A DNA stretch of 9,544 nucleotides, taken from a virus (taxonomy: Duplodnaviria > Heunggongvirae > Uroviricota > Caudoviricetes). Below, in pieces: positions 1 through 9,544 of this stretch (the first letter of the stretch is position 1; the number at the start of each line of letters is the position of its first letter). The stretch lies in IMG/VR virus record IMGVR_UViG_2684622619_000007; one strand, given 5' to 3'. The notes below the pieces were generated by a model. It saw nothing but the letters and a program-made list of their open reading frames with translations. It searched no databases and was not told where the DNA came from. Made by a program: the position numbers and the translations under genes.

Positions 1-114
1 ATGATCTGGCAGCCTGAGTTCACAGATAAAACACTCTCCAGGAAACCCGGGGCGGTTCAAACTATGTCCGCAGCCCTGACAGGGAAACTCCTCTGCGGGA
101 GTGTCCGGGAATAA
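1..114 (+). CDS. Possible 3' end of a gene entering from the left edge (partial; reads MIWQPEFTDKTLSRKPGAVQTMSAALTGKLLCGSVRE then stop)
   Basis: Frame 1 is open from the window edge to TAA at 112-114. Composition is ordinary, unlike the AT-rich block downstream. No start context can be judged because the 5' part is outside the window. Not in the ORF track. Confidence 0.25.
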   Translation: MIWQPEFTDKTLSRKPGAVQTMSAALTGKLLCGSVRE

Positions 115-205
115 TTAATAACGATGCACACAGGGTTTAGCGCGTACACGTATTGCATTATGCCAACGCCCCGGTGCTGACACGGAAGAAACCGGACGTG
201 ATGAT

Positions 206-739
206 TTAGCGTGGAAAGATTTGTGTAGTGTTCTGAATGCTCTCAGTAAATAGTAATGAATTATCAAAGGCATAGTAATATCTTTTATGTTCGTGGATAT
301 TTGTAACCCATCGGAAAACTCCTGCTTTAGCAAGATTTTCCCTGTATTGCTGAAATGTGATTTCTCTTGATTTCAACCTATCATAGGACGTTTCTATAAG
401 ATGCGTATTTCTTGAGAATTTAACATTCACAACCTTTTTAAGTCCTTTTATTAACACAGTGTTATCGTTTTCTAACACAATGTGAATATTATCTGTGGCT
501 AGATAGTAAATATAATGTGAGACATTGTGACGTTTTAGTTCAGAATAAAACAATTCACAGTTTAAATCTTTTCGCACTTGATCGAATATTTCTTTAAAAA
601 TGGCAACCTGAGCCATTGGTAAAACCTTCCATGTGATACGAGGGCGCGTAGTTTGCATTATCGTTTTTATCGTTTCAATCTGGTCTGACCTCTTTGTGTT
701 TTGTTGATGATTTATGTCAAATATTAGGAATGTTTTCAA
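206..739 (-). CDS. Hypothetical protein, 177 aa, AT-rich right-arm accessory ORF of unknown function
   Basis: 534-nt ORF on the minus strand. The track's start is a TTG at 737-739 with no obvious Shine-Dalgarno; an AAAGAGGT motif lies further in, 8 nt before an in-frame ATT and about 30 nt before the first in-frame ATG (MQTTRPR...), so the true start is uncertain. I do not recognise a domain. Confidence 0.55.
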
Positions 740-901
740 TTAATAGTATTGGTTGCGTAACAAAGTGCGGTCCTGCTGGCATTCTGGAGGGAAATACAAC
801 CGACAGATGTATGTAAGGCCAACGTGCTCAAATCTTCATACAGAAAGATTTGAAGTAATATTTTAACCGCTAGATGAAGAGCAAGCGCATGGAGCGACAA
901 A

Positions 902-1108
902 ATGAATAAAGAACAATCTGCTGATGATCCCTCCGTGGATCTGATTCGTGTAAAAAATATGCTTAATAGCACCATTTCTATGAGTTACCCTGATGTTGTA
1001 ATTGCATGTATAGAACATAAGGTGTCTCTGGAAGCATTCAGGGCAATTGAGGCAGCGTTGGTGAAGCACGATAATAATATGAAGGATTATTCCCTGGTGG
1101 TTGACTGA
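902..1108 (+). CDS. Small hypothetical protein, 68 aa, divergent from the 177-aa ORF
   Basis: ATG at 902 preceded by GGAG at 891-894 (7-nt spacer). The protein has a balanced, charged composition, whereas the overlapping minus-strand alternatives (736-975, 863-1069) are Cys-rich and implausible. Confidence 0.5.
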
Positions 1109-1272
1109 TCACCATAACTGCTAATCATTCAAACTACTTAACCTGTGACAGAGCCAACACGCAGTCTGTCACTGTCAGGAAAGTGGTAAAACTGCAACTC
1201 AATTACTGCAATGCCCTCGTAATTAAGTGAATTTACAATATCGTCCTGTTCGGAGGGAAGAACGCGGGATGT

Positions 1273-1567
1273 TCATTCTTCATCACTTTTAATTGATGTA
1301 TATGCTCTCTTTTCTGACGTTAGCCTCCGACGGCAGGCTTCAATGACCCAGGCTGAGAAATTTCCGGACCCTTTTTGATCAAGAGCGATGTTAATTTGTT
1401 CAATCATTTGGTTAGGAAAGCGGATGTTGCGGGTTGTNNNNNNNNNNNNNNNNNNNNNNNNNNNNNNNNNNNNNNNNNNNNNNNNNNATGTTAATTTGTT
1501 CAATCATCTGGTTTGGAAATCGGATGTTGCGGGTTGTTGTTCTGCGGGTTCTGTTCTTTGATGACAT
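1273..1567 (-). CDS. Small ribbon-helix-helix (Arc/CopG-like) DNA-binding protein, interrupted by an assembly gap; about 64 aa if the gap and duplicated flank are removed
   Basis: Minus-strand ATG at 1565-1567 reads MSSKNRTRRTTTRNIRFPNQMIEQIN, runs into the N-run, and resumes in frame to TGA at 1273-1275 (...IALDQKGSGNFSAWVIEACRRRLTSEKRAYTSIKSDEE). The N-I-R-F-P ... G-S-G-N-F-S-A-W-V-I-E-A pattern resembles the beta-strand/helix-turn-helix-pair signature of P22 Arc (NLRWPREVLDLVRKVAEENGRSVNSEIYQRV). Confidence 0.55.
1388..1537. repeat. Imperfect 50-bp direct repeat (1388-1437 and 1488-1537; 47/50 identical) flanking a run of 50 N
   Basis: Copy 1: atgttaatttgttcaatcatTtggttAggaaaGcggatgttgcgggttgt. 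Copy 2 is identical except C, T, T at the capitalised positions. The N-run separates them exactly. Confidence 0.9.
1438..1487. other. Run of 50 N: assembly or scaffold gap
   Basis: Fifty consecutive n characters in the sequence. Confidence 0.98.
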
Positions 1568-1766: not shown

Positions 1767-1778
1767 GGGCGGCGACCT
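1767..1778 (+). other. cosN: cosN cohesive-end sequence (12-nt GGGCGGCGACCT), found in the joined state
   Basis: GGGCGGCGACCT is preceded by ...gatccgaccggttacg and followed by cgcgggttttcgctatttatgaaaattttccgg, which matches the lambda right-end/left-end junction as I recall it. A GATAAT-T-ATTATC palindrome sits at 1717-1729, where the lambda cosQ region would be. Confidence 0.9.
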
Positions 1779-1953: not shown

Positions 1954-2473
1954 ATGAAGGTTAATAAAAAGAAACTTGCCGAAATTTTCAACGTGGATCC
2001 GCGAACGATTGAACGCTGGCAGTCTCAGGGGCTCCCTTGCGTCTCCGGAGGTGGTAAGGGCGTTGAATCTGTATTTGATACCGCCACGGCAATTCAGTGG
2101 TATGCGCAGAGGGAAGCTGATATCGAAAATGAAAAACTCCGTAAAGAGGTTGAGGATTACAGGGCTGCCAGCGAGGCAGATCTCCAGCCTGGGACTATTG
2201 AGTACGAACGCCATCGACTTACGCGTGCGCAGGCTGACGCCCAGGAGCTGAAGAATGCCAGAGACTCCGCAGAAGTGGTGGAAACCGCATTCTGTACTTT
2301 CGTGCTGTCACGGATCGCAGGTGAAATTGCCAGTATTCTTGACGGGATCCCTCTCTCAGTACAGCGGCGTTTTCCGGAACTGGAAAACCGACATGTTGAT
2401 TTCCTGAAACGGGATATTATCAAAGCCATGAACAAAGCAGCCGCGCTGGATGAACTGATACCGGGGTTGCTGA

Positions 2474-2499
<26 letters not shown>
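1954..2499 (+). CDS. nu1: Terminase small subunit (Nu1-like), 181 aa, mosaic: N-terminal third differs from lambda Nu1, remainder lambda-like
   Basis: ATG at 1954, TGA at 2497-2499. The C-terminal two thirds ([54 protein letters not shown]...LSEYIEQS) match lambda Nu1 as I recall it. The N-terminal region ([41 protein letters not shown]...) is related but clearly different; the GGGKG motif is retained. First gene after cos, 3' end overlaps A. Confidence 0.93.
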
Positions 2500-6180
<3,681 letters not shown>

Positions 6181-6200
<20 letters not shown>

Positions 6201-7500
6201 TCTCCCGCATATTGCCAGCATGGCTTTTAATGAGCCGCTGATGCTTGAACCCGCCTATGCGCGGGTTTTCTTTTGTGCGCTTGCAGGCCAGCTTGGGATC
6301 AGCCGCCTGACGGATGCAGTATCCGGCGACAGCCTGACTGCCGGAGAGGCACCCGCGGCGCTGGCGTTATCCGGTGATGATGACGGACCACGACAGGCCC
6401 GGAGTTATCAGGTCATGAACGGCATCGCCGTGCTGCCGGTGTCCGGTACGCTGGTCAGCCGGACGCGGGCGCTGCAGCCGTATTCGGGAATGACCGGTTA
6501 CAACGGCATTATCGCCCGTCTGCAACAGGCTGCCAGCGATCCGATGGTGGACGGCATTCTGCTCGATATGGACACACCGGGCGGGATGGTGGCGGGAGCA
6601 TTTGACTGTGCTGACATCATCGCCCGTGTGCGAGACATAAAACCGGTATGGGCGCTGGCCAACGACATGAACTGCAGTGCAGGTCAGCTGCTTGCCAGCG
6701 CCGCCTCCCGGCGTCTGGTCACGCAGACCGCCCGGACAGGCTCCATCGGCGTCATGATGGCTCACAGTAATTACGGTGCTGCCCTGGAGAAACAGGGCGT
6801 GGAAATCACGCTGATTTACAGCGGCAGCCATAAGGTGGATGGCAACCCCTACAGCCATCTACCGGGTGATGTCCGGGAAACACTGCAGTCCCGGATGGAT
6901 GCAACCCGCCGGATGTTTGCGCAGAAGGTGTCGGCATATACCGGCCTGTCCGTGCAGGCTGTGCTGGATACCGAGGCTGCAGTGTACAGCGGTCAGGAGG
7001 CCATTGATGCCGGACTGGCTGATGAACTTGTCAACAGCACCGATGCGATCACCGTTATGCGTGATGCACTGGATGCACGTAAATCCCGTCTCTCAGGAGG
7101 GCGAATGACCAAAGAGACTCAATCAACAACTGTTTCAGCCACTGCTTCGCAGGCTGACGTTACTGGCGTGGTGCCAGCGACGGAGGGCGAAAACGCCAGC
7201 GCGGCGCAGCCGGACGTGAACGCGCAGATCACCGCTGCGGTTGCGGCAGAAAACAGCCGCATTATGGGGATCCTCAACTGTGAGGAGGCTCACGGACGCG
7301 AAGAACAGGCCCGCGTGCTGGCAGAAACCCCCGGTATGACCGTGGAAACGGCCCGCCGCATTCTGGCCGCAGCACCACAGAGTGCACAGGCGCGCAGTGA
7401 TACTGCGCTGGATCGTCTGATGCAGGGGGCACCGGCACCGCTGGCTGCAGGTAACCCGGCATCTGATGCCGTTAACGATTTGCTGAACACACCAGTGTAA
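6181..7500 (+). CDS. C: Head maturation protease / minor capsid protein gpC (S49-type serine peptidase family), 439 aa
   Basis: GTG at 6181 preceded by GGAGG at 6170-6174 (6-nt spacer), overlapping the B 3' end by 20 nt. Begins (V/M)TAELRNLPHIASMAFNEPLMLEPAYARVFF, matching the lambda gpC N-terminus as I recall it. The track's longer ORF from 6046 is only an upstream in-frame extension. Confidence 0.93.
6895..7500 (+). CDS. nu3: Scaffolding protein Nu3, nested in frame within the 3' third of C (about 201 aa)
   Basis: In lambda, nu3 is translated from an internal in-frame start in C and shares its stop. The in-frame ATG at 6895 (MDATRRMFAQKVSAY...) is at the expected distance from the C start. 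No strong Shine-Dalgarno is visible, so the exact start is uncertain. Confidence 0.6.
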   Translation: MDATRRMFAQKVSAYTGLSVQAVLDTEAAVYSGQEAIDAGLADELVNSTDAITVMRDALDARKSRLSGGRMTKETQSTTVSATASQADVTGVVPATEGENASAAQPDVNAQITAAVAAENSRIMGILNCEEAHGREEQARVLAETPGMTVETARRILAAAPQSAQARSDTALDRLMQGAPAPLAAGNPASDAVNDLLNTPV

Positions 7501-7509
7501 GGGATGTTT

Positions 7510-7842
7510 ATGACGAGCAAAGAAACCTTTACCCATTACCAGCCGCTGGGCAACAGTGACCCGGCTCATACCGCAACCGCGCCCGGCGGATTGAGTGCGA
7601 AAGCGCCTGCAATGACCCCGCTGATGCTGGACACCTCCAGCCGTAAGCTGGTTGCGTGGGATGGCACCACCGACGGTGCTGCCGTTGGCATTCTTGCGGT
7701 TGCTGCTGACCAGACCAGCACCACGCTGACGTTCTACAAGTCCGGCACGTTCCGTTATGAGGATGTGCTCTGGCCGGAGGCTGCCAGCGACGAGACGAAA
7801 AAACGGACCGCGTTTGCCGGAACGGCAATCAGCATCGTTTAA
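7510..7842 (+). CDS. D: Head decoration protein gpD, 110 aa
   Basis: ATG at 7510 preceded by AAGGGA (5-nt spacer). [27 protein letters not shown]... matches lambda gpD as I recall it. The ATG at 7504 used by the track would add two residues and overlaps the Shine-Dalgarno. Confidence 0.95.
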
Positions 7843-7860
7843 CCTGACCCTTCATCACTA

Positions 7861-7884
7861 AAGGCCGCCTGTGCGGCTTTTTTT
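7861..7884 (+). terminator. Terminator-like hairpin in the D-E intergenic region: 8-bp stem (one G-U pair), CUGU loop, then a T-run
   Basis: aaggccgc-ctgt-gcggcttt followed by tttt at 7881-7884, then acgggattttttt and the E start. Located inside the late operon. Confidence 0.4.
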
Positions 7885-7897
7885 ACGGGATTTTTTT

Positions 7898-8923
7898 ATG
7901 TCGATGTACACAACCGCCCAACTGCTGGCGGCAAATGAGCAGAAATTTAAGTTTGATCCGCTGTTTCTGCGTCTCTTTTTCCGTGAGAGCTATCCCTTCA
8001 CCACGGAGAAAGTCTATCTCTCACAAATTCCGGGACTGGTAAACATGGCGCTGTACGTTTCGCCGATTGTTTCTGGTGAGGTTATCCGTTCCCGTGGCGG
8101 CTCCACCTCTGAATTTACGCCGGGATATGTCAAGCCGAAGCATGAAGTGAATCCGCAGATGACCCTGCGTCGCCTGCCGGATGAAGATCCGCAGAATCTG
8201 GCGGACCCGGCTTACCGCCGCCGTCGCATCATCATGCAGAACATGCGTGACGAAGAGCTGGCCATTGCTCAGGTCGAAGAGATGCAGGCAGTTTCTGCCG
8301 TGCTCAAGGGCAAATACACCATGACCGGTGAAGCCTTCGATCCGGTTGAGGTGGATATGGGCCGCAGTGCGGCGAACAACATCACGCAGTCCGGCGGCAC
8401 GGAGTGGAGCAAGCGTGACAAGTCCACGTATGACCCGACCGACGATATCGAAGCCTACGCGCTGAACGCCAGCGGCGTGGTGAATATCATCGTGTTTGAC
8501 CCGAAAGGCTGGGCGCTGTTCCGTTCCTTCAAAGCCGTCAGGGAGAAGCTGGATACCCGTCGCGGCTCTCATTCCGAACTGGAGACAGCGGTAAAAGACC
8601 TGGGCAAAGCGGTGTCTTATAAGGGAATGTATGGCGATGTGGCCATCGTCGTGTATTCCGGACAGTACGTGGAAAACGGCGTCAAAAAGAACTTCCTGCC
8701 GGACAACACGATGGTGCTGGGGAACACTCAGGCACGCGGTCTGCGCACCTATGGCTGCATTCAGGATGCGGACGCACAGCGCGAAGGCATTAACGCCTCT
8801 GCCCGTTACCCGAAAAACTGGGTGACCACCGGCGATCCGGCGCGTGAGTTCACCATGATTCAGTCAGCACCGCTGATGCTGCTGGCTGACCCTGATGAGT
8901 TCGTGTCCGTACAACTGGCGTAA
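7898..8923 (+). CDS. E: Major capsid protein gpE, 341 aa
   Basis: ATG at 7898 (MSMYTTAQLLAANEQKFKFDPLFLRLFF...), 341 aa ending ...DEFVSVQLA, matching lambda gpE as I recall it. The track's GTG at 7871 is an upstream extension lying inside the hairpin. Confidence 0.97.
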   Translation: MSMYTTAQLLAANEQKFKFDPLFLRLFFRESYPFTTEKVYLSQIPGLVNMALYVSPIVSGEVIRSRGGSTSEFTPGYVKPKHEVNPQMTLRRLPDEDPQNLADPAYRRRRIIMQNMRDEELAIAQVEEMQAVSAVLKGKYTMTGEAFDPVEVDMGRSAANNITQSGGTEWSKRDKSTYDPTDDIEAYALNASGVVNIIVFDPKGWALFRSFKAVREKLDTRRGSHSELETAVKDLGKAVSYKGMYGDVAIVVYSGQYVENGVKKNFLPDNTMVLGNTQARGLRTYGCIQDADAQREGINASARYPKNWVTTGDPAREFTMIQSAPLMLLADPDEFVSVQLA

Positions 8924-8925
8924 TC

Positions 8926-8950
8926 ATGGCCCTTCGGGGCCATTGTTTTT
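8926..8950 (+). terminator. Hairpin with a UUCG tetraloop in the E-FI intergenic region: 7-bp stem plus a U-rich tail
   Basis: atggccc-ttcg-gggccat at 8926-8943, followed by tgttttt at 8944-8950, immediately after the E stop. Confidence 0.4.
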
Positions 8951-8964
8951 CTGTGGAGGAGTCC

Positions 8965-9363
8965 ATGACGAAAGATGAACTGATTGCCCGTCTCCGCTCG
9001 CTGGGTGAACAACTGAACCGTGATGTCAGCCTGACGGGGACGAAAGAAGAACTGGCGCTCCGTGTGGCAGAGCTGGAAGAGGAGCTTGATGACACGGATG
9101 AAACTGCCGGTCAGGACACCCCTCTCAGCCGGGAAAATGTGCTGACCGGACATGAAAATGAGGTGGGATCAGCGCAGCCGGATACCGTGATTCTGGATAC
9201 GTCTGAACTGGTCACGGTCGTGGCACTGGTGAAGCTGCATACTGATGCACTTCACGTCACGCGGGATGAACCTGTGGCATTTGTGCTGCCGGGAACGGCG
9301 TTTCGTGTCTCTGCCGGTGTGGCAGCCGAAATGACAGAGCGCGGCCTGGCCAGAATGCAATAA
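8965..9363 (+). CDS. FI: DNA-packaging / head assembly protein gpFI, 132 aa
   Basis: ATG at 8965 preceded by GGAGGAG. MTKDELIARLRSLGEQLNRDVSLTGTKEELALRVAEL... matches lambda gpFI as I recall it. TAA at 9361-9363. Confidence 0.93.
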   Translation: MTKDELIARLRSLGEQLNRDVSLTGTKEELALRVAELEEELDDTDETAGQDTPLSRENVLTGHENEVGSAQPDTVILDTSELVTVVALVKLHTDALHVTRDEPVAFVLPGTAFRVSAGVAAEMTERGLARMQ

Positions 9364-9374
9364 CGGGAGGCGCT

Positions 9375-9544
9375 GTGGCTGATTTCGATAACCTGTTCGA
9401 TGCTGCCATTGCCCGCGCCGATGAAACGATACGCGGGTACATGGGAACGTCAGCCACCATGACATCCGGTGAGCAGTCCGGCGCAGTAATACGTGGTGTT
9501 TTTGATGACCCTGAAAATATCAGCTATGCCGGACAGGGCGTGCG
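9375..9544 (+). CDS. FII: Head-tail connector protein gpFII (5' part only; truncated by the window end)
   Basis: GTG at 9375 preceded by GGGAGG at 9365-9370. Translation (V/M)ADFDNLFDAAIARADETIRGYMGTSATMTSGEQSGAVIRGVFDDPENISYAGQGV matches the lambda gpFII N-terminus as I recall it. Not in the ORF track because it has a GTG start and no stop. Confidence 0.85.
   Translation, partial: MADFDNLFDAAIARADETIRGYMGTSATMTSGEQSGAVIRGVFDDPENISYAGQGV

Follow-up and report, generated by a model that had tools for sequence, protein, structure and literature searches.

The window that we have analysed is a stretch of 9,544 nucleotides from an IMG/VR virus record (IMGVR_UViG_2684622619_000007), and the locus of interest, at positions 206-1108, carries two divergent genes: ybcW, located on the strand of the late operon, and ybcV, which runs against the direction of late transcription. 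The earlier note, made from the letters of the window, had described two open reading frames (ORFs) of unknown function with nothing in the sequence to identify them; in the records of lambda and E. coli, they are annotated as lambdap78/YbcV and lambdap79/YbcW, the former belonging to a Pfam family (DUF1398) with a homologue of solved structure. Window 60-1437 is 98.3% identical to lambda 46898-48273, and many E. coli O157:H7 genomes hold a prophage that is 100% identical to window 1-1437, the annotated locus among these being NZ_CP015020 (PGAP); the annotations of lambda, K-12 and O157 thus already contain this sequence, the two genes and the families to which they are assigned.

The ORF coordinates of the earlier note were exact [206-739, minus strand, 177 aa, TTG start; 902-1108, plus strand, 68 aa, ATG start], and so was its gap of 162 nt (740-901) between the ORFs as first called. 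It had rightly left the start of the 177-aa ORF in doubt: that ORF is an over-extension of a 136-aa ybcV at 206-616, and the true intergenic region therefore measures 285 nt, not 162 nt. The features of the locus are the following:

1-59, plus strand: 3' end of an IS1203/IS629-family (IS3-like) element; its terminal repeat, ...CCGGGGCGGTTCA, ends at 59 (PGAP, NZ_CP015020)
60-62: target-site duplication AAC, 3 bp, from the junction comparison
69-64, minus strand: CGGACA, the -35 half of the bor-upstream promoter annotated in HK630
206-616, minus strand: ybcV = lambdap78, true coding sequence, 136 aa, DUF1398 domain (Pfam, PDB, EcoCyc/PGAP)
617-739, minus strand: spurious N-terminal extension of 41 codons, corresponding to regulatory/intergenic DNA
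625-630, minus strand: Shine-Dalgarno-like GGAAGG, 7-8 nt upstream of the ATG at 616-614, invariant in 7/7 aligned loci
675-695, minus strand: orphan end of a ynfO-type gene, its last 21 nt including the TGA stop (aligned with Qin, ev099 and PhiR70_1)
678-694: PdhR box ATCTGGTCTGACCTCTT
696-1304, plus strand: inserted segment of 609 nt that carries ybcW (pairwise breakpoints, alignments)
702-725: FNR site TGTTGATGATTTATGTCAAATATT
833-861, plus strand: candidate sigma70 promoter
891-894, plus strand: GGAG, the Shine-Dalgarno sequence of ybcW, 7 nt ahead of its ATG, invariant in 6 loci
902-1108, plus strand: ybcW = lambdap79, 68 aa, 100% identical to lambda p79
1109-1254, plus strand: tail of the ybcW cassette, non-coding but conserved (alignment of relatives)
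1273-1437, minus strand: 3' part of ylcI, DUF3950, YlcI/YnfO family (PF13132, E=5e-20; PGAP)
1767-1778, plus strand: cosN cohesive-end sequence GGGCGGCGACCT, exact match

The homology to lambda begins at position 60, directly past the end of the IS element, which separates the -35 half of the bor-upstream promoter from its -10 and, unlike in lambda, separates bor from ybcV in the O157 prophage. In other respects, ybcV shares with lambdap78 its position, strand, neighbours (bor, ybcW, ylcI) and single DUF1398 domain; the protein is 98.5% identical to the lambda and DLP12 copies, with two residue changes relative to lambda (N19D and A115T), and 79% identical to YdfO of Qin. The ybcW gene, which sits here in an O157:H7 prophage and not in laboratory lambda, differs from lambdap79 by one synonymous nucleotide and has the same non-coding flanks on both sides. 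Taken alone, an ORF of 68 codons is within chance at this place, where two further ORFs (68 and 79 aa) overlap it in antisense. At the right side of the locus, the last 10 codons of ylcI (1273-1304) lie within the inserted segment and its 5' end is broken by a run of N (1438-1487); cosN, with the right end of lambda aligned to window 1766, closes the accessory slot on the right.

Base composition and the cargo slot

The compositional break claimed by the earlier note was borne out by sliding-window calculation: the GC content is 36.1% at 206-1108 and 56.8% across the head genes at 1954-9544, where every window of 903 nt contains at least 52.0% GC. The contrast extends to third codon positions, with GC3 values of 0.29 for ybcV and 0.39 for ybcW versus 0.50-0.61 for the terminase genes; in both measures, the two genes are unlike the neighbouring phage genes, as is expected of morons. 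The AT-rich block is broader than the interval first noted, reaching from about 115 to 1953 (39.3% GC) and taking in ylcI and cos, and the region 740-901, which had been called an AT-rich spacer, in fact has the lowest AT content within the interval (42% GC).

The interval is best described as the variable cargo slot that lies between the lysis genes/bor and cos in a lambda-type prophage of O157:H7. Its placement between the lysis region and cos holds for the complete genome only, the lysis genes being absent from the window; the slot between Rz/bor and cos varies across relatives, and both genes in it are accessory and non-essential. The proposal of a horizontally acquired moron stands as regards composition, presence or absence among relatives and sharp junctions, each of the genes being missing from some collinear relatives; as regards flanking promoters and terminators, the hits are weak. 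In the sense of the Hendrix/Juhala concept, ybcV and ybcW resemble the morons bor and lom, which are likewise non-essential, deviant in composition and located in a slot that varies among collinear relatives, and bor adjoins the two genes in the same slot. The resemblance is partial: unlike ybcV and ybcW, bor has a defined promoter, expression in the lysogen and a serum resistance phenotype, and ybcW, unlike the classic moron bor, is oriented with the late operon and made in lytic growth.

Junctions of the ybcW segment

The comparison of relatives has revealed four types of arrangement of the locus. Qin, Shigella, E. albertii, ev099 and PhiR70_1 have a ydfO/ybcV gene but no ybcW, and mEp460, PhiR63_1 and HannyBb have ybcW but no ybcV. 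In the Qin-type loci, the 609-nt segment is absent and 50 nt are found in its place, the breakpoints against Qin, ev099 and PhiR70_1 falling at 695/696 and 1304/1305; the core that is common to phages of the gnsB-ybcW type spans about 743/784-1254, according to the breakpoints against mEp460 and PhiR63_1. Among 5426 complete E. coli genomes, the ybcW cassette is present in 1989 (~37%) and ybcV-like genes are present in 2911; 942 records carry the cassette at an identity of at least 99%, O157:H7 included.

The flanks of the segment are 82-93% identical in DNA to the Qin-type flanks. Adjacent to cos, both Qin and the window have a DUF3950 gene followed by a DUF1398 gene in the same orientation; the tandem of Qin (ynfO→ydfO) is uninterrupted, whereas that of the window is split by the ybcW segment, which has given YlcI a new C-terminus of 10 residues, while 21 nt from the end of the old ynfO persist upstream of ybcV. 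We infer that a ynfO-type gene received the segment in its 3' end and that an older ynfO→ydfO tandem was thereby split; an insertion is preferred to a deletion because of the orphan ynfO 3' end and because the cassette is present elsewhere.

Transcription and regulatory sites

The 285-nt intergenic region is identical to its DLP12 copy at 283 of 285 nt. Its PdhR box is an exact match to the site reported from gSELEX for the ybcV/ybcW genes of DLP12, the mRNAs of which drop ~9-10-fold in a pdhR mutant (PMC7660256), and its FNR site matches exactly the ybcW site of a ChIP-chip study, where it was assigned to ybcW (PMC1802558); the PdhR and FNR data were measured on DLP12 in K-12, and the sites in the window have been matched to them by sequence. 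In addition, Hha binds and induces ybcW, and overexpression of T4 MotB, which alters H-NS-dependent repression, raises DLP12 ybcV/ybcW more than 1000-fold.

The hexamers of the sigma70-like promoter that the earlier note had pointed out are located where it placed them (TCTTCA at 833-838 and TAATAT at 856-861, spaced by 17 nt), and its grading of the promoter as weak was sound: the hexamers match at 7/12 positions, below the threshold of our scan, which returned nothing in 617-901 and whose total number of sites did not exceed that in shuffled sequences. No convincing intrinsic terminators were found flanking ybcV or ybcW. The tail of the cassette contains an invariant 8-bp hairpin (GTGACAGA/TCTGTCAC at 1145-1172) without a U-tract; the RNA fold of 1106-1260 does not rise above shuffles (z=-0.78), and the Rfam search gave only sub-threshold noise from eukaryotic miRNA/snoRNA families, outside 206-1108.

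In lytic growth, ybcW is most likely carried on the Q-antiterminated late transcript from pR'. In a repressed or cryptic prophage, the AT-rich intergenic region that the two genes share would drive low expression of both, controlled by the host through PdhR, FNR and Hha and probably silenced by H-NS. Another possibility is that ybcW is a lysogenic-conversion moron and not a late gene, the sigma70 promoter at 833-861 being the main source of its mRNA in the repressed prophage. The -10 of this promoter (T[AT]ATAT) is conserved; in mEp460-type loci, a TTCA motif resembling the -35 is still found at 17 nt despite an insertion of 8 nt (tandem CTTTCA); the mRNA is detected and regulated in DLP12, without active late transcription; and the spacing of the FNR site from TAGTAT at 744-749 would be plausible for a class II arrangement. 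The -35 is kept loosely: position 833 is C in DLP12, and Tritos has an insertion of 16 nt and CTTTTA at the position of the -35. Together with the 7/12 match, these differences speak against the promoter as the main source of ybcW mRNA, as do two published results: a purely lytic infection by lambda-vir yields enough p79 to fire the Vulcan defence (see below), and a dCas12a roadblock placed in p79 does as much harm as one in essential late genes, which fits the location of p79 within the pR' transcript. We therefore regard expression mainly from the gene's own promoter as possible but rather doubtful; the two modes of expression are not mutually exclusive.

Probable independence of the two genes

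The arrangement of the locus is best explained by two independent, dispensable cassettes, ybcV and ybcW, that are located in the cargo slot of a lambda-type prophage, and we estimate the probability of this explanation as a whole at roughly 0.78. The earlier note had treated the genes as a divergent pair, but as a unit the pair does not hold, since each gene occurs without the other in the Qin-type and mEp460-type loci. A single two-gene module (toxin-antitoxin, defence or regulator-effector) controlled from the shared spacer would agree with the divergent layout over a common control region of 285 nt, with the joint drop of both mRNAs in the pdhR mutant (PMC7660256) and with the IMG/VR loci that carry the lambda allele of YbcW, where both genes occur together at a fixed spacing of 286 nt (80/80) and where a functional link is possible. 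It is nevertheless improbable, given the separate occurrence of each gene in several phages and prophages, the location of ybcW on an insertion with junctions of its own, the viability of lambda without p79 when a ydfO-type gene is kept, and the result of the PADLOC search, in which neither protein was significantly matched by any family. We also considered whether YnfO/YlcI could be an antitoxin of the ribbon-helix-helix type and YdfO its toxin, and rejected this idea: no support was obtained from structure or sequence, and ylcI occurs without ybcV.

Start codon of ybcV

The window, lambda and DLP12 all have an open frame for the 177-aa product (206-739), with its N-terminal extension of 41 residues, and 534 nt are annotated in lambda records. 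We consider it very unlikely that this is the real product: its TTG/GTG start at 739 has no Shine-Dalgarno sequence, whereas the ATG at 616 is preceded by the invariant GGAAGG; a deletion of 1 nt in Tritos shifts the frame of the extension; codons 1-15 fall in the inserted DNA, the homology to Qin-type loci stopping at about 696, and the stretch after codon 15 is the old ynfO stop region in a different frame; and the PdhR and FNR sites fall within the extension. The matches to Pfam, PHROG and 2HH8 start only at aa 37-49 of the long form, and both EcoCyc and PGAP give 136 aa. A remnant of the YnfO C-terminus in the extension at the protein level was rejected, as only DNA is shared, in another frame.

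The YbcV protein

YbcV is a basic (pI 9.2), soluble protein that matches PF07166 over the whole profile (1-119 of 119; E=3.4e-46, 156.6 bits against a cut-off of 22) and the YdfO structure 2HH8 with residues 40-177, in the 177-aa numbering, on chain positions 4-141 (E=4.5e-71); when a profile of 14 homologues was compared with the sequences of the PDB, 2HH8 was the sole match (E=1.9e-80). Across divergent loci, the length of ybcV is invariant, without indels, and dN/dS is 0.08-0.35. No signal peptide, lipobox or transmembrane segment was found by a heuristic search of YbcV, the maximal 19-residue hydropathy being 0.43 versus 1.49 for the Bor control.

The family phrog_413, which YbcV matches with E=2.7e-88, is labelled 'head protein', as is the gene in RefSeq NC_001416, and older records give 'putative envelope protein'; if YbcV were a core structural protein, the island would not be accessory. 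This is hardly credible, since the labels are inherited names and not experiments, the gene is non-essential by CRISPRi and classical genetics, it is not part of the head operon and runs antisense to late genes, it is kept in the cryptic prophages DLP12 and Qin, which both lack head genes, and the protein, unlike Bor, has no signal peptide or membrane segment. The common annotation of lambdap78 as a 177-aa 'head protein' or 'envelope protein' is wrong in both length and name, and the most likely role of YbcV is in the lysogen (stress or physiology) rather than in virion production.

The YbcW protein

YbcW is acidic (pI 4.9) and is predicted to consist of four helices (AlphaFold2, pLDDT 68.8). 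It matches phrog_657 over its full length (1-68 of 68; E=7.5e-48) and no Pfam family. Foldseek comparison of the model with the PDB and BFVD gave nothing below E=3, and the profile search of the PDB sequences gave noise only, so that structure prediction has yielded no functional lead. Across divergent loci, the length of ybcW is invariant, residues 16-56 are nearly invariant, with an invariant core at 29-53, and dN/dS is ~0.41-0.44. In an exhaustive search for distant relatives, which gave 199 clusters, 15 representatives that seemed divergent were inspected: nearly all are frameshifted, noisy copies of the lambda gene, P0241 is a close, Tritos-like variant (88%) and P0318 is the sole distant homologue, a singleton of ~54-60% identity.

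The codon-level comparisons indicate that both ybcV and ybcW are under purifying selection, and this conservation, the structure of the YbcV homologue and the published experiments with lambdap79 together argue that both are real genes. That their frames are open by mere chance, in non-coding, AT-rich sequence close to cos, as the antisense ORFs of similar size and the absence of a Pfam family for YbcW could suggest, has a negligible probability in view of the invariant lengths and dN/dS of 0.08-0.44, the folded and solved homologue of YbcV, the Shine-Dalgarno sequences conserved for both genes and the triggering of Vulcan by lambdap79 expressed alone.

Function and recognition by Vulcan

Both lambdap78 and lambdap79 are non-essential for lambda, according to CRISPRi and classical genetics. 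A 2026 preprint reports that lambdap79 alone activates 'Vulcan', a NIR-HEAT NADase defence, and that lambda escapes by dropping lambdap79 through recombination with Qin. This deletion agrees with the homology arms that we have mapped, and the exact boundaries of the cassette explain the loss of lambdap79 through Qin recombination and hence the escape from Vulcan. YbcW of the window is the same protein as the activator of the preprint, from which the activation itself is taken; as the proteins are identical, it is very unlikely that the O157 allele fails to activate Vulcan.

The earlier note had remarked that such slots often carry lysogenic-conversion or anti-phage functions. No evidence of an anti-phage function was obtained: the defence models of PADLOC scored at best an unconvincing 16.7 bits (REase_II, E=9e-4) and 12.8 bits (E=0.017), and NCBIfam gave no meaningful match. 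The one activity that is defined is of the opposite kind, lambdap79 being the protein that a defence system senses. YbcW is most likely a small, acidic, helical effector that binds a protein partner, a property that the HEAT repeats of Vulcan would detect. A bolder and, in our judgement, unlikely reading is that YbcW is an effector of counter-defence or host takeover that blocks a protein of the host or of a rival phage, Vulcan having evolved to recognise YbcW for this blocking activity, and that the DUF3950-DUF1398 pair (YnfO→YdfO/YbcV) is a module expressed in the lysogen, under metabolic regulation by PdhR/FNR, that alters the physiology of the host; if true, it would assign functions to the last uncharacterised genes of the right end of lambda. 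With the ybcW cassette in ~37% of the complete E. coli genomes, the prophages of these genomes should be visible to sensors of the Vulcan type.

Identity and coding status of the two genes

Window 1-1437 is identical (100%) to a prophage in many E. coli O157:H7 genomes, and window 60-1437 matches phage lambda 46898-48273 at 98.3% identity. In a complete O157 genome, the locus runs from Q through holin, lysozyme, Rz, bor (minus strand), IS1203 (plus), ybcV (minus), ybcW (plus), ylcI (minus) and cos to terminase, portal and further genes. The two open reading frames, for which the earlier note gave no function, are recognised by homology searches as lambdap78 and lambdap79 of lambda, i.e. ybcV and ybcW in the cryptic prophage DLP12 of K-12. 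The larger protein, YbcV, matches Pfam DUF1398 (E=3.4e-46) and 2HH8, the NMR structure of the Qin paralogue YdfO (E=4.5e-71); the smaller protein, YbcW, is 100% identical to the lambda protein, and its sole family match is phrog_657, a family of unknown function. By all the features tested, the proteins belong to DUF1398 and to the YbcW family; the same features reject an obligate pair, a head protein and an envelope protein. The names given to lambdap78, “head protein” (RefSeq NC_001416, apparently from the phrog_413 label of PHROG) and “putative envelope protein” (older records), are unsupported by gene position, strand, dispensability and sequence.

Neither gene varies in length among the aligned loci (136 and 68 codons, zero indels), and the SD sequences of both genes are conserved; dN/dS is 0.08-0.35 for ybcV and approximately 0.41-0.44 for ybcW (versus its two most diverged types), the changes in ybcW falling mostly in residues 1-15 and 57-60. 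2HH8 is the solved structure of a purified YbcV homologue, and lambdap79 produces a defined effect when expressed (Vulcan preprint). Both genes are real, but all the essentials were previously annotated or published; this analysis adds a corrected gene length, the junctions of the cassettes with the orphan ynfO end, and the match of these junctions to a published escape route.

The start codon of ybcV

The 177-aa frame of the earlier note is over-extended, and the actual gene encodes 136 aa (206-616, minus strand): similarity to Pfam, PHROG and 2HH8 starts only at residues 37-49 of the longer frame; the 136-aa product is annotated in both EcoCyc and PGAP; the GGAAGG ahead of ATG 616 is invariant in the aligned loci; in Tritos, the loss of 1 nt between the extension and ATG 616 puts the extension out of frame; Qin-type homology stops at approximately 696, within the extension; and the extension holds the following elements:

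675-695, the final 21 nt, including the stop codon, of an orphan ynfO-type 3' end, in another frame than the long ORF
678-694, published PdhR box, exact match
702-725, published FNR ChIP site, exact match

With the start at ATG 616, the intergenic region is therefore 617-901 (285 nt).

Composition and cassette junctions

On rechecking, the positions claimed for both ORFs, the gap and the two promoter hexamers are exact, and the claimed compositional break is borne out by sliding-window and feature-wise counts (36.1% GC in 206-1108 versus 56.8% in 1954-9544, the lowest 903-nt window of the head genes having 52.0%). The AT-rich interval is real, but it reaches beyond the claimed span: the low-GC block covers approximately 115-1953, through ylcI and cos, with cosN (1767-1778) inside it. 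The spacer 740-901, described as AT-rich, has 42% GC, more than any other part of the interval.

Pairwise breakpoints and alignments show that Qin, ev099 and PhiR70_1 align with the window until 695 and resume at 1305, window 696-1304 (609 nt, with ybcW) being replaced by 50 nt; these loci carry the DUF3950 gene ynfO, 57 nt, and then the DUF1398 gene. In Qin-type loci (Qin itself, L005 4757-5458), the DUF3950 gene precedes the DUF1398 gene on a shared strand, in an operon-like layout. In ylcI, the ynfO homologue of the window, the last 10 codons are new and are encoded in the inserted DNA. In mEp460, PhiR63_1 and HannyBb, ybcW is located downstream of csp-ynfN-gnsB, ybcV is absent, and only approximately 743/784-1254 is shared with the window; Tritos has gnsB, ybcV and ybcW together. 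By the breakpoints and the separate occurrence of each cassette, the “divergent pair” is thus not a unit but two separable cassettes that came to lie side by side secondarily. On a parsimonious reading of the alignments, an insertion would have split ynfO→ydfO, this being the most economical account of the locus. Where the lambda YbcW allele is present, the arrangement is fixed, with a start-to-start distance of 286 nt in 80/80 IMG/VR loci.

Window 206-1108, in the slot between Rz and cos, comprises two accessory cassettes that are independent of each other, dispensable and foreign in composition. Their description as a moron agrees with presence/absence and composition, but so far not with the promoter and terminator expected of one.

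The DUF3950 gene (YlcI/YnfO) adjoins cos in most lambdoid loci that reach that far (window ylcI, 1273-1567); its N-terminus (RNIRFPNQMIEQINIAL) has a ribbon-helix-helix look by eye, to which searches gave no backing.

Expression

The orientation of ybcW is that of S-R-Rz and Nu1-A. In the lambda CRISPRi map, the lambdap79 roadblock scores as “essential”, though the map lists the gene as non-essential on the basis of classical genetics, and the authors document that such roadblocks are strongly polar where antiterminated transcripts are long; the opposite-strand gene lambdap78 scores as non-essential. During lambda-vir infection, p79 is made in amounts sufficient to fire a defence system. From the co-orientation, the polarity and the presence of p79 in infection, we infer that ybcW is transcribed as part of the pR' late transcript.

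The intergenic region of DLP12 is identical to that of the window at 283/285 nt. Published work on DLP12 reports that the ybcV and ybcW mRNAs are both approximately 9-10-fold lower in a pdhR mutant (PMC7660256), that FNR binds upstream of ybcW (PMC1802558), that Hha binds and induces ybcW, and that ybcV and ybcW each rise more than 1000-fold upon overexpression of T4 MotB, a protein that changes H-NS-dependent repression. The promoter proposed at 833-861 is a weak candidate: its -10 is conserved and its -35 partly so, but it scores 7/12, under the scan threshold. The TTCA -35-like motif keeps its 17-nt spacing in mEp460-type loci despite an 8-nt indel, and does not occur in Tritos. Scanning and folding around the genes gave no convincing terminator; an 8-bp hairpin downstream of ybcW (1145-1172) is invariant except for its loop and lacks a U-tract. 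The 146 nt 3' of ybcW (1109-1254) are conserved about as much as the gene, across cassette types. In the output of a published tool, ybcW-ylcI figures as a convergent “excludon” whose transcripts overlap.

Function

According to the Vulcan preprint, co-expression of lambdap79 with this NADase defence system is toxic, and lambdap79 was lost in 7/7 lambda-vir escapers, apparently via recombination with Qin; the arms of homology to Qin that we have mapped (187-695 and 1305 onward, 82-93% identity) are exactly what a double crossover of this kind would require. YbcW is acidic (computed pI 4.9) and is modelled, with moderate confidence, as a small four-helix protein, for which Foldseek found no fold neighbours in the PDB and BFVD. 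YbcV is computed to be basic (pI 9.2) and soluble, sequence computation found no export signal, and its structure model is unusable. A glycogen-excess phenotype has been reported upon YbcV overexpression; for YdfO, one paper cites increased oxidative-stress resistance upon overexpression and itself reports strong induction by an ionic liquid.

An anti-phage role, which the earlier note mentioned as frequent in such slots, finds no backing in PADLOC, where neither protein has a defence-system match. YbcW is probably a late-expressed, weakly lysogen-expressed small effector that binds protein, and the HEAT repeats of Vulcan would recognise it directly; our best guess, of low probability, is that it acts in counter-defence or host takeover. 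YbcV, originally paired with a DUF3950 gene, probably serves the lysogen and would be under the metabolic control of the host.

Prevalence and relatives

Among 5426 complete E. coli genomes, 1989 carry the ybcW cassette and 2911 carry ybcV-like genes; in isolated-phage records, each gene is restricted to approximately 40 lambda-like phages. The genuine hosts among the loci found are Escherichia, Shigella and Citrobacter only.

The lambda right end also occurs, at approximately 99% identity, in assemblies labelled Pseudomonas, Kitasatospora, Flavobacterium, Cohnella and others, and on “plasmids” of Brevibacillus (3552 nt) and Arcanobacterium (3566 nt); hundreds of ENA contigs of approximately 3.5 kb carry it with frameshifted proteins. 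These right ends comprise loci L017-L040, L047-L051 and L054-L055, and proteins P0001-P0120 and P0249-P0297. Their most likely source is lambda DNA used as a control or spike-in, possibly a nanopore control amplicon; such stray DNA inflates the apparent size and diversity of the YbcV/YbcW family. “Campylobacter phage CJLB-4” (MW057783, 48,361 bp), 98.3% identical to window 60-1437, as lambda is, with identical YbcV/YbcW, appears to be essentially lambda; this record and an “unnamed protein” of the plant Dovyalis caffra (P0005), 99% identical to YbcW, are probably contamination or mislabelling.

The sole truly divergent YbcW homologue (P0318, 63 aa, approximately 54-60% identity; L013/L014 273-464) forms a cluster of its own in the protein database, comes from contigs of three sequencing runs only, and has a non-lambdoid neighbourhood of DUF7828/zinc-ribbon genes and a weak REP_ORF2-G2P match. 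In Citrobacter murliniae (L052 2995-3399), a DUF1398 gene (53% identity) occurs without ynfO or ybcW, flanked by an SMR-type transporter gene and, by our own reading of the sequence, a predicted metallophosphatase; this lone copy indicates that the DUF1398 gene can stand by itself.

Assembly join and the rest of the prophage

A run of 50 N (1438-1487) is flanked by 50-nt near-duplicates (1388-1437 and 1488-1537, 47/50 identical). The identity to the prophage of O157 strain 28RC1 is 100% in 1-1437, 95.1% in 1488-1811 and 98.9% in 2098-9544, with no megablast match to that locus in 1812-2097. The run has the appearance of a scaffolding join between two contigs with a 50-nt overlap, which may derive from different prophage copies; the join breaks ylcI and adds approximately 100 artificial bases, and the ybcV/ybcW interval lies wholly on the left contig.

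Window 59 is the last position of an IS1203/IS629-family element, which has duplicated 3 bp of its target (AAC); the junctions of the element were read in window 1-70 and in the O157 locus (L006 7733-7760, 9040-9075). The insertion point lies in the spacer of the HK630-annotated minus-strand promoter upstream of bor, parting the -35 from the -10, so bor expression in the O157 prophage may differ from that in lambda. Between ren and the nin-region genes, the same prophage has a second cargo slot (L006 1033-3136), which holds an EmrE multidrug efflux gene together with a large gene of the recombinase family.
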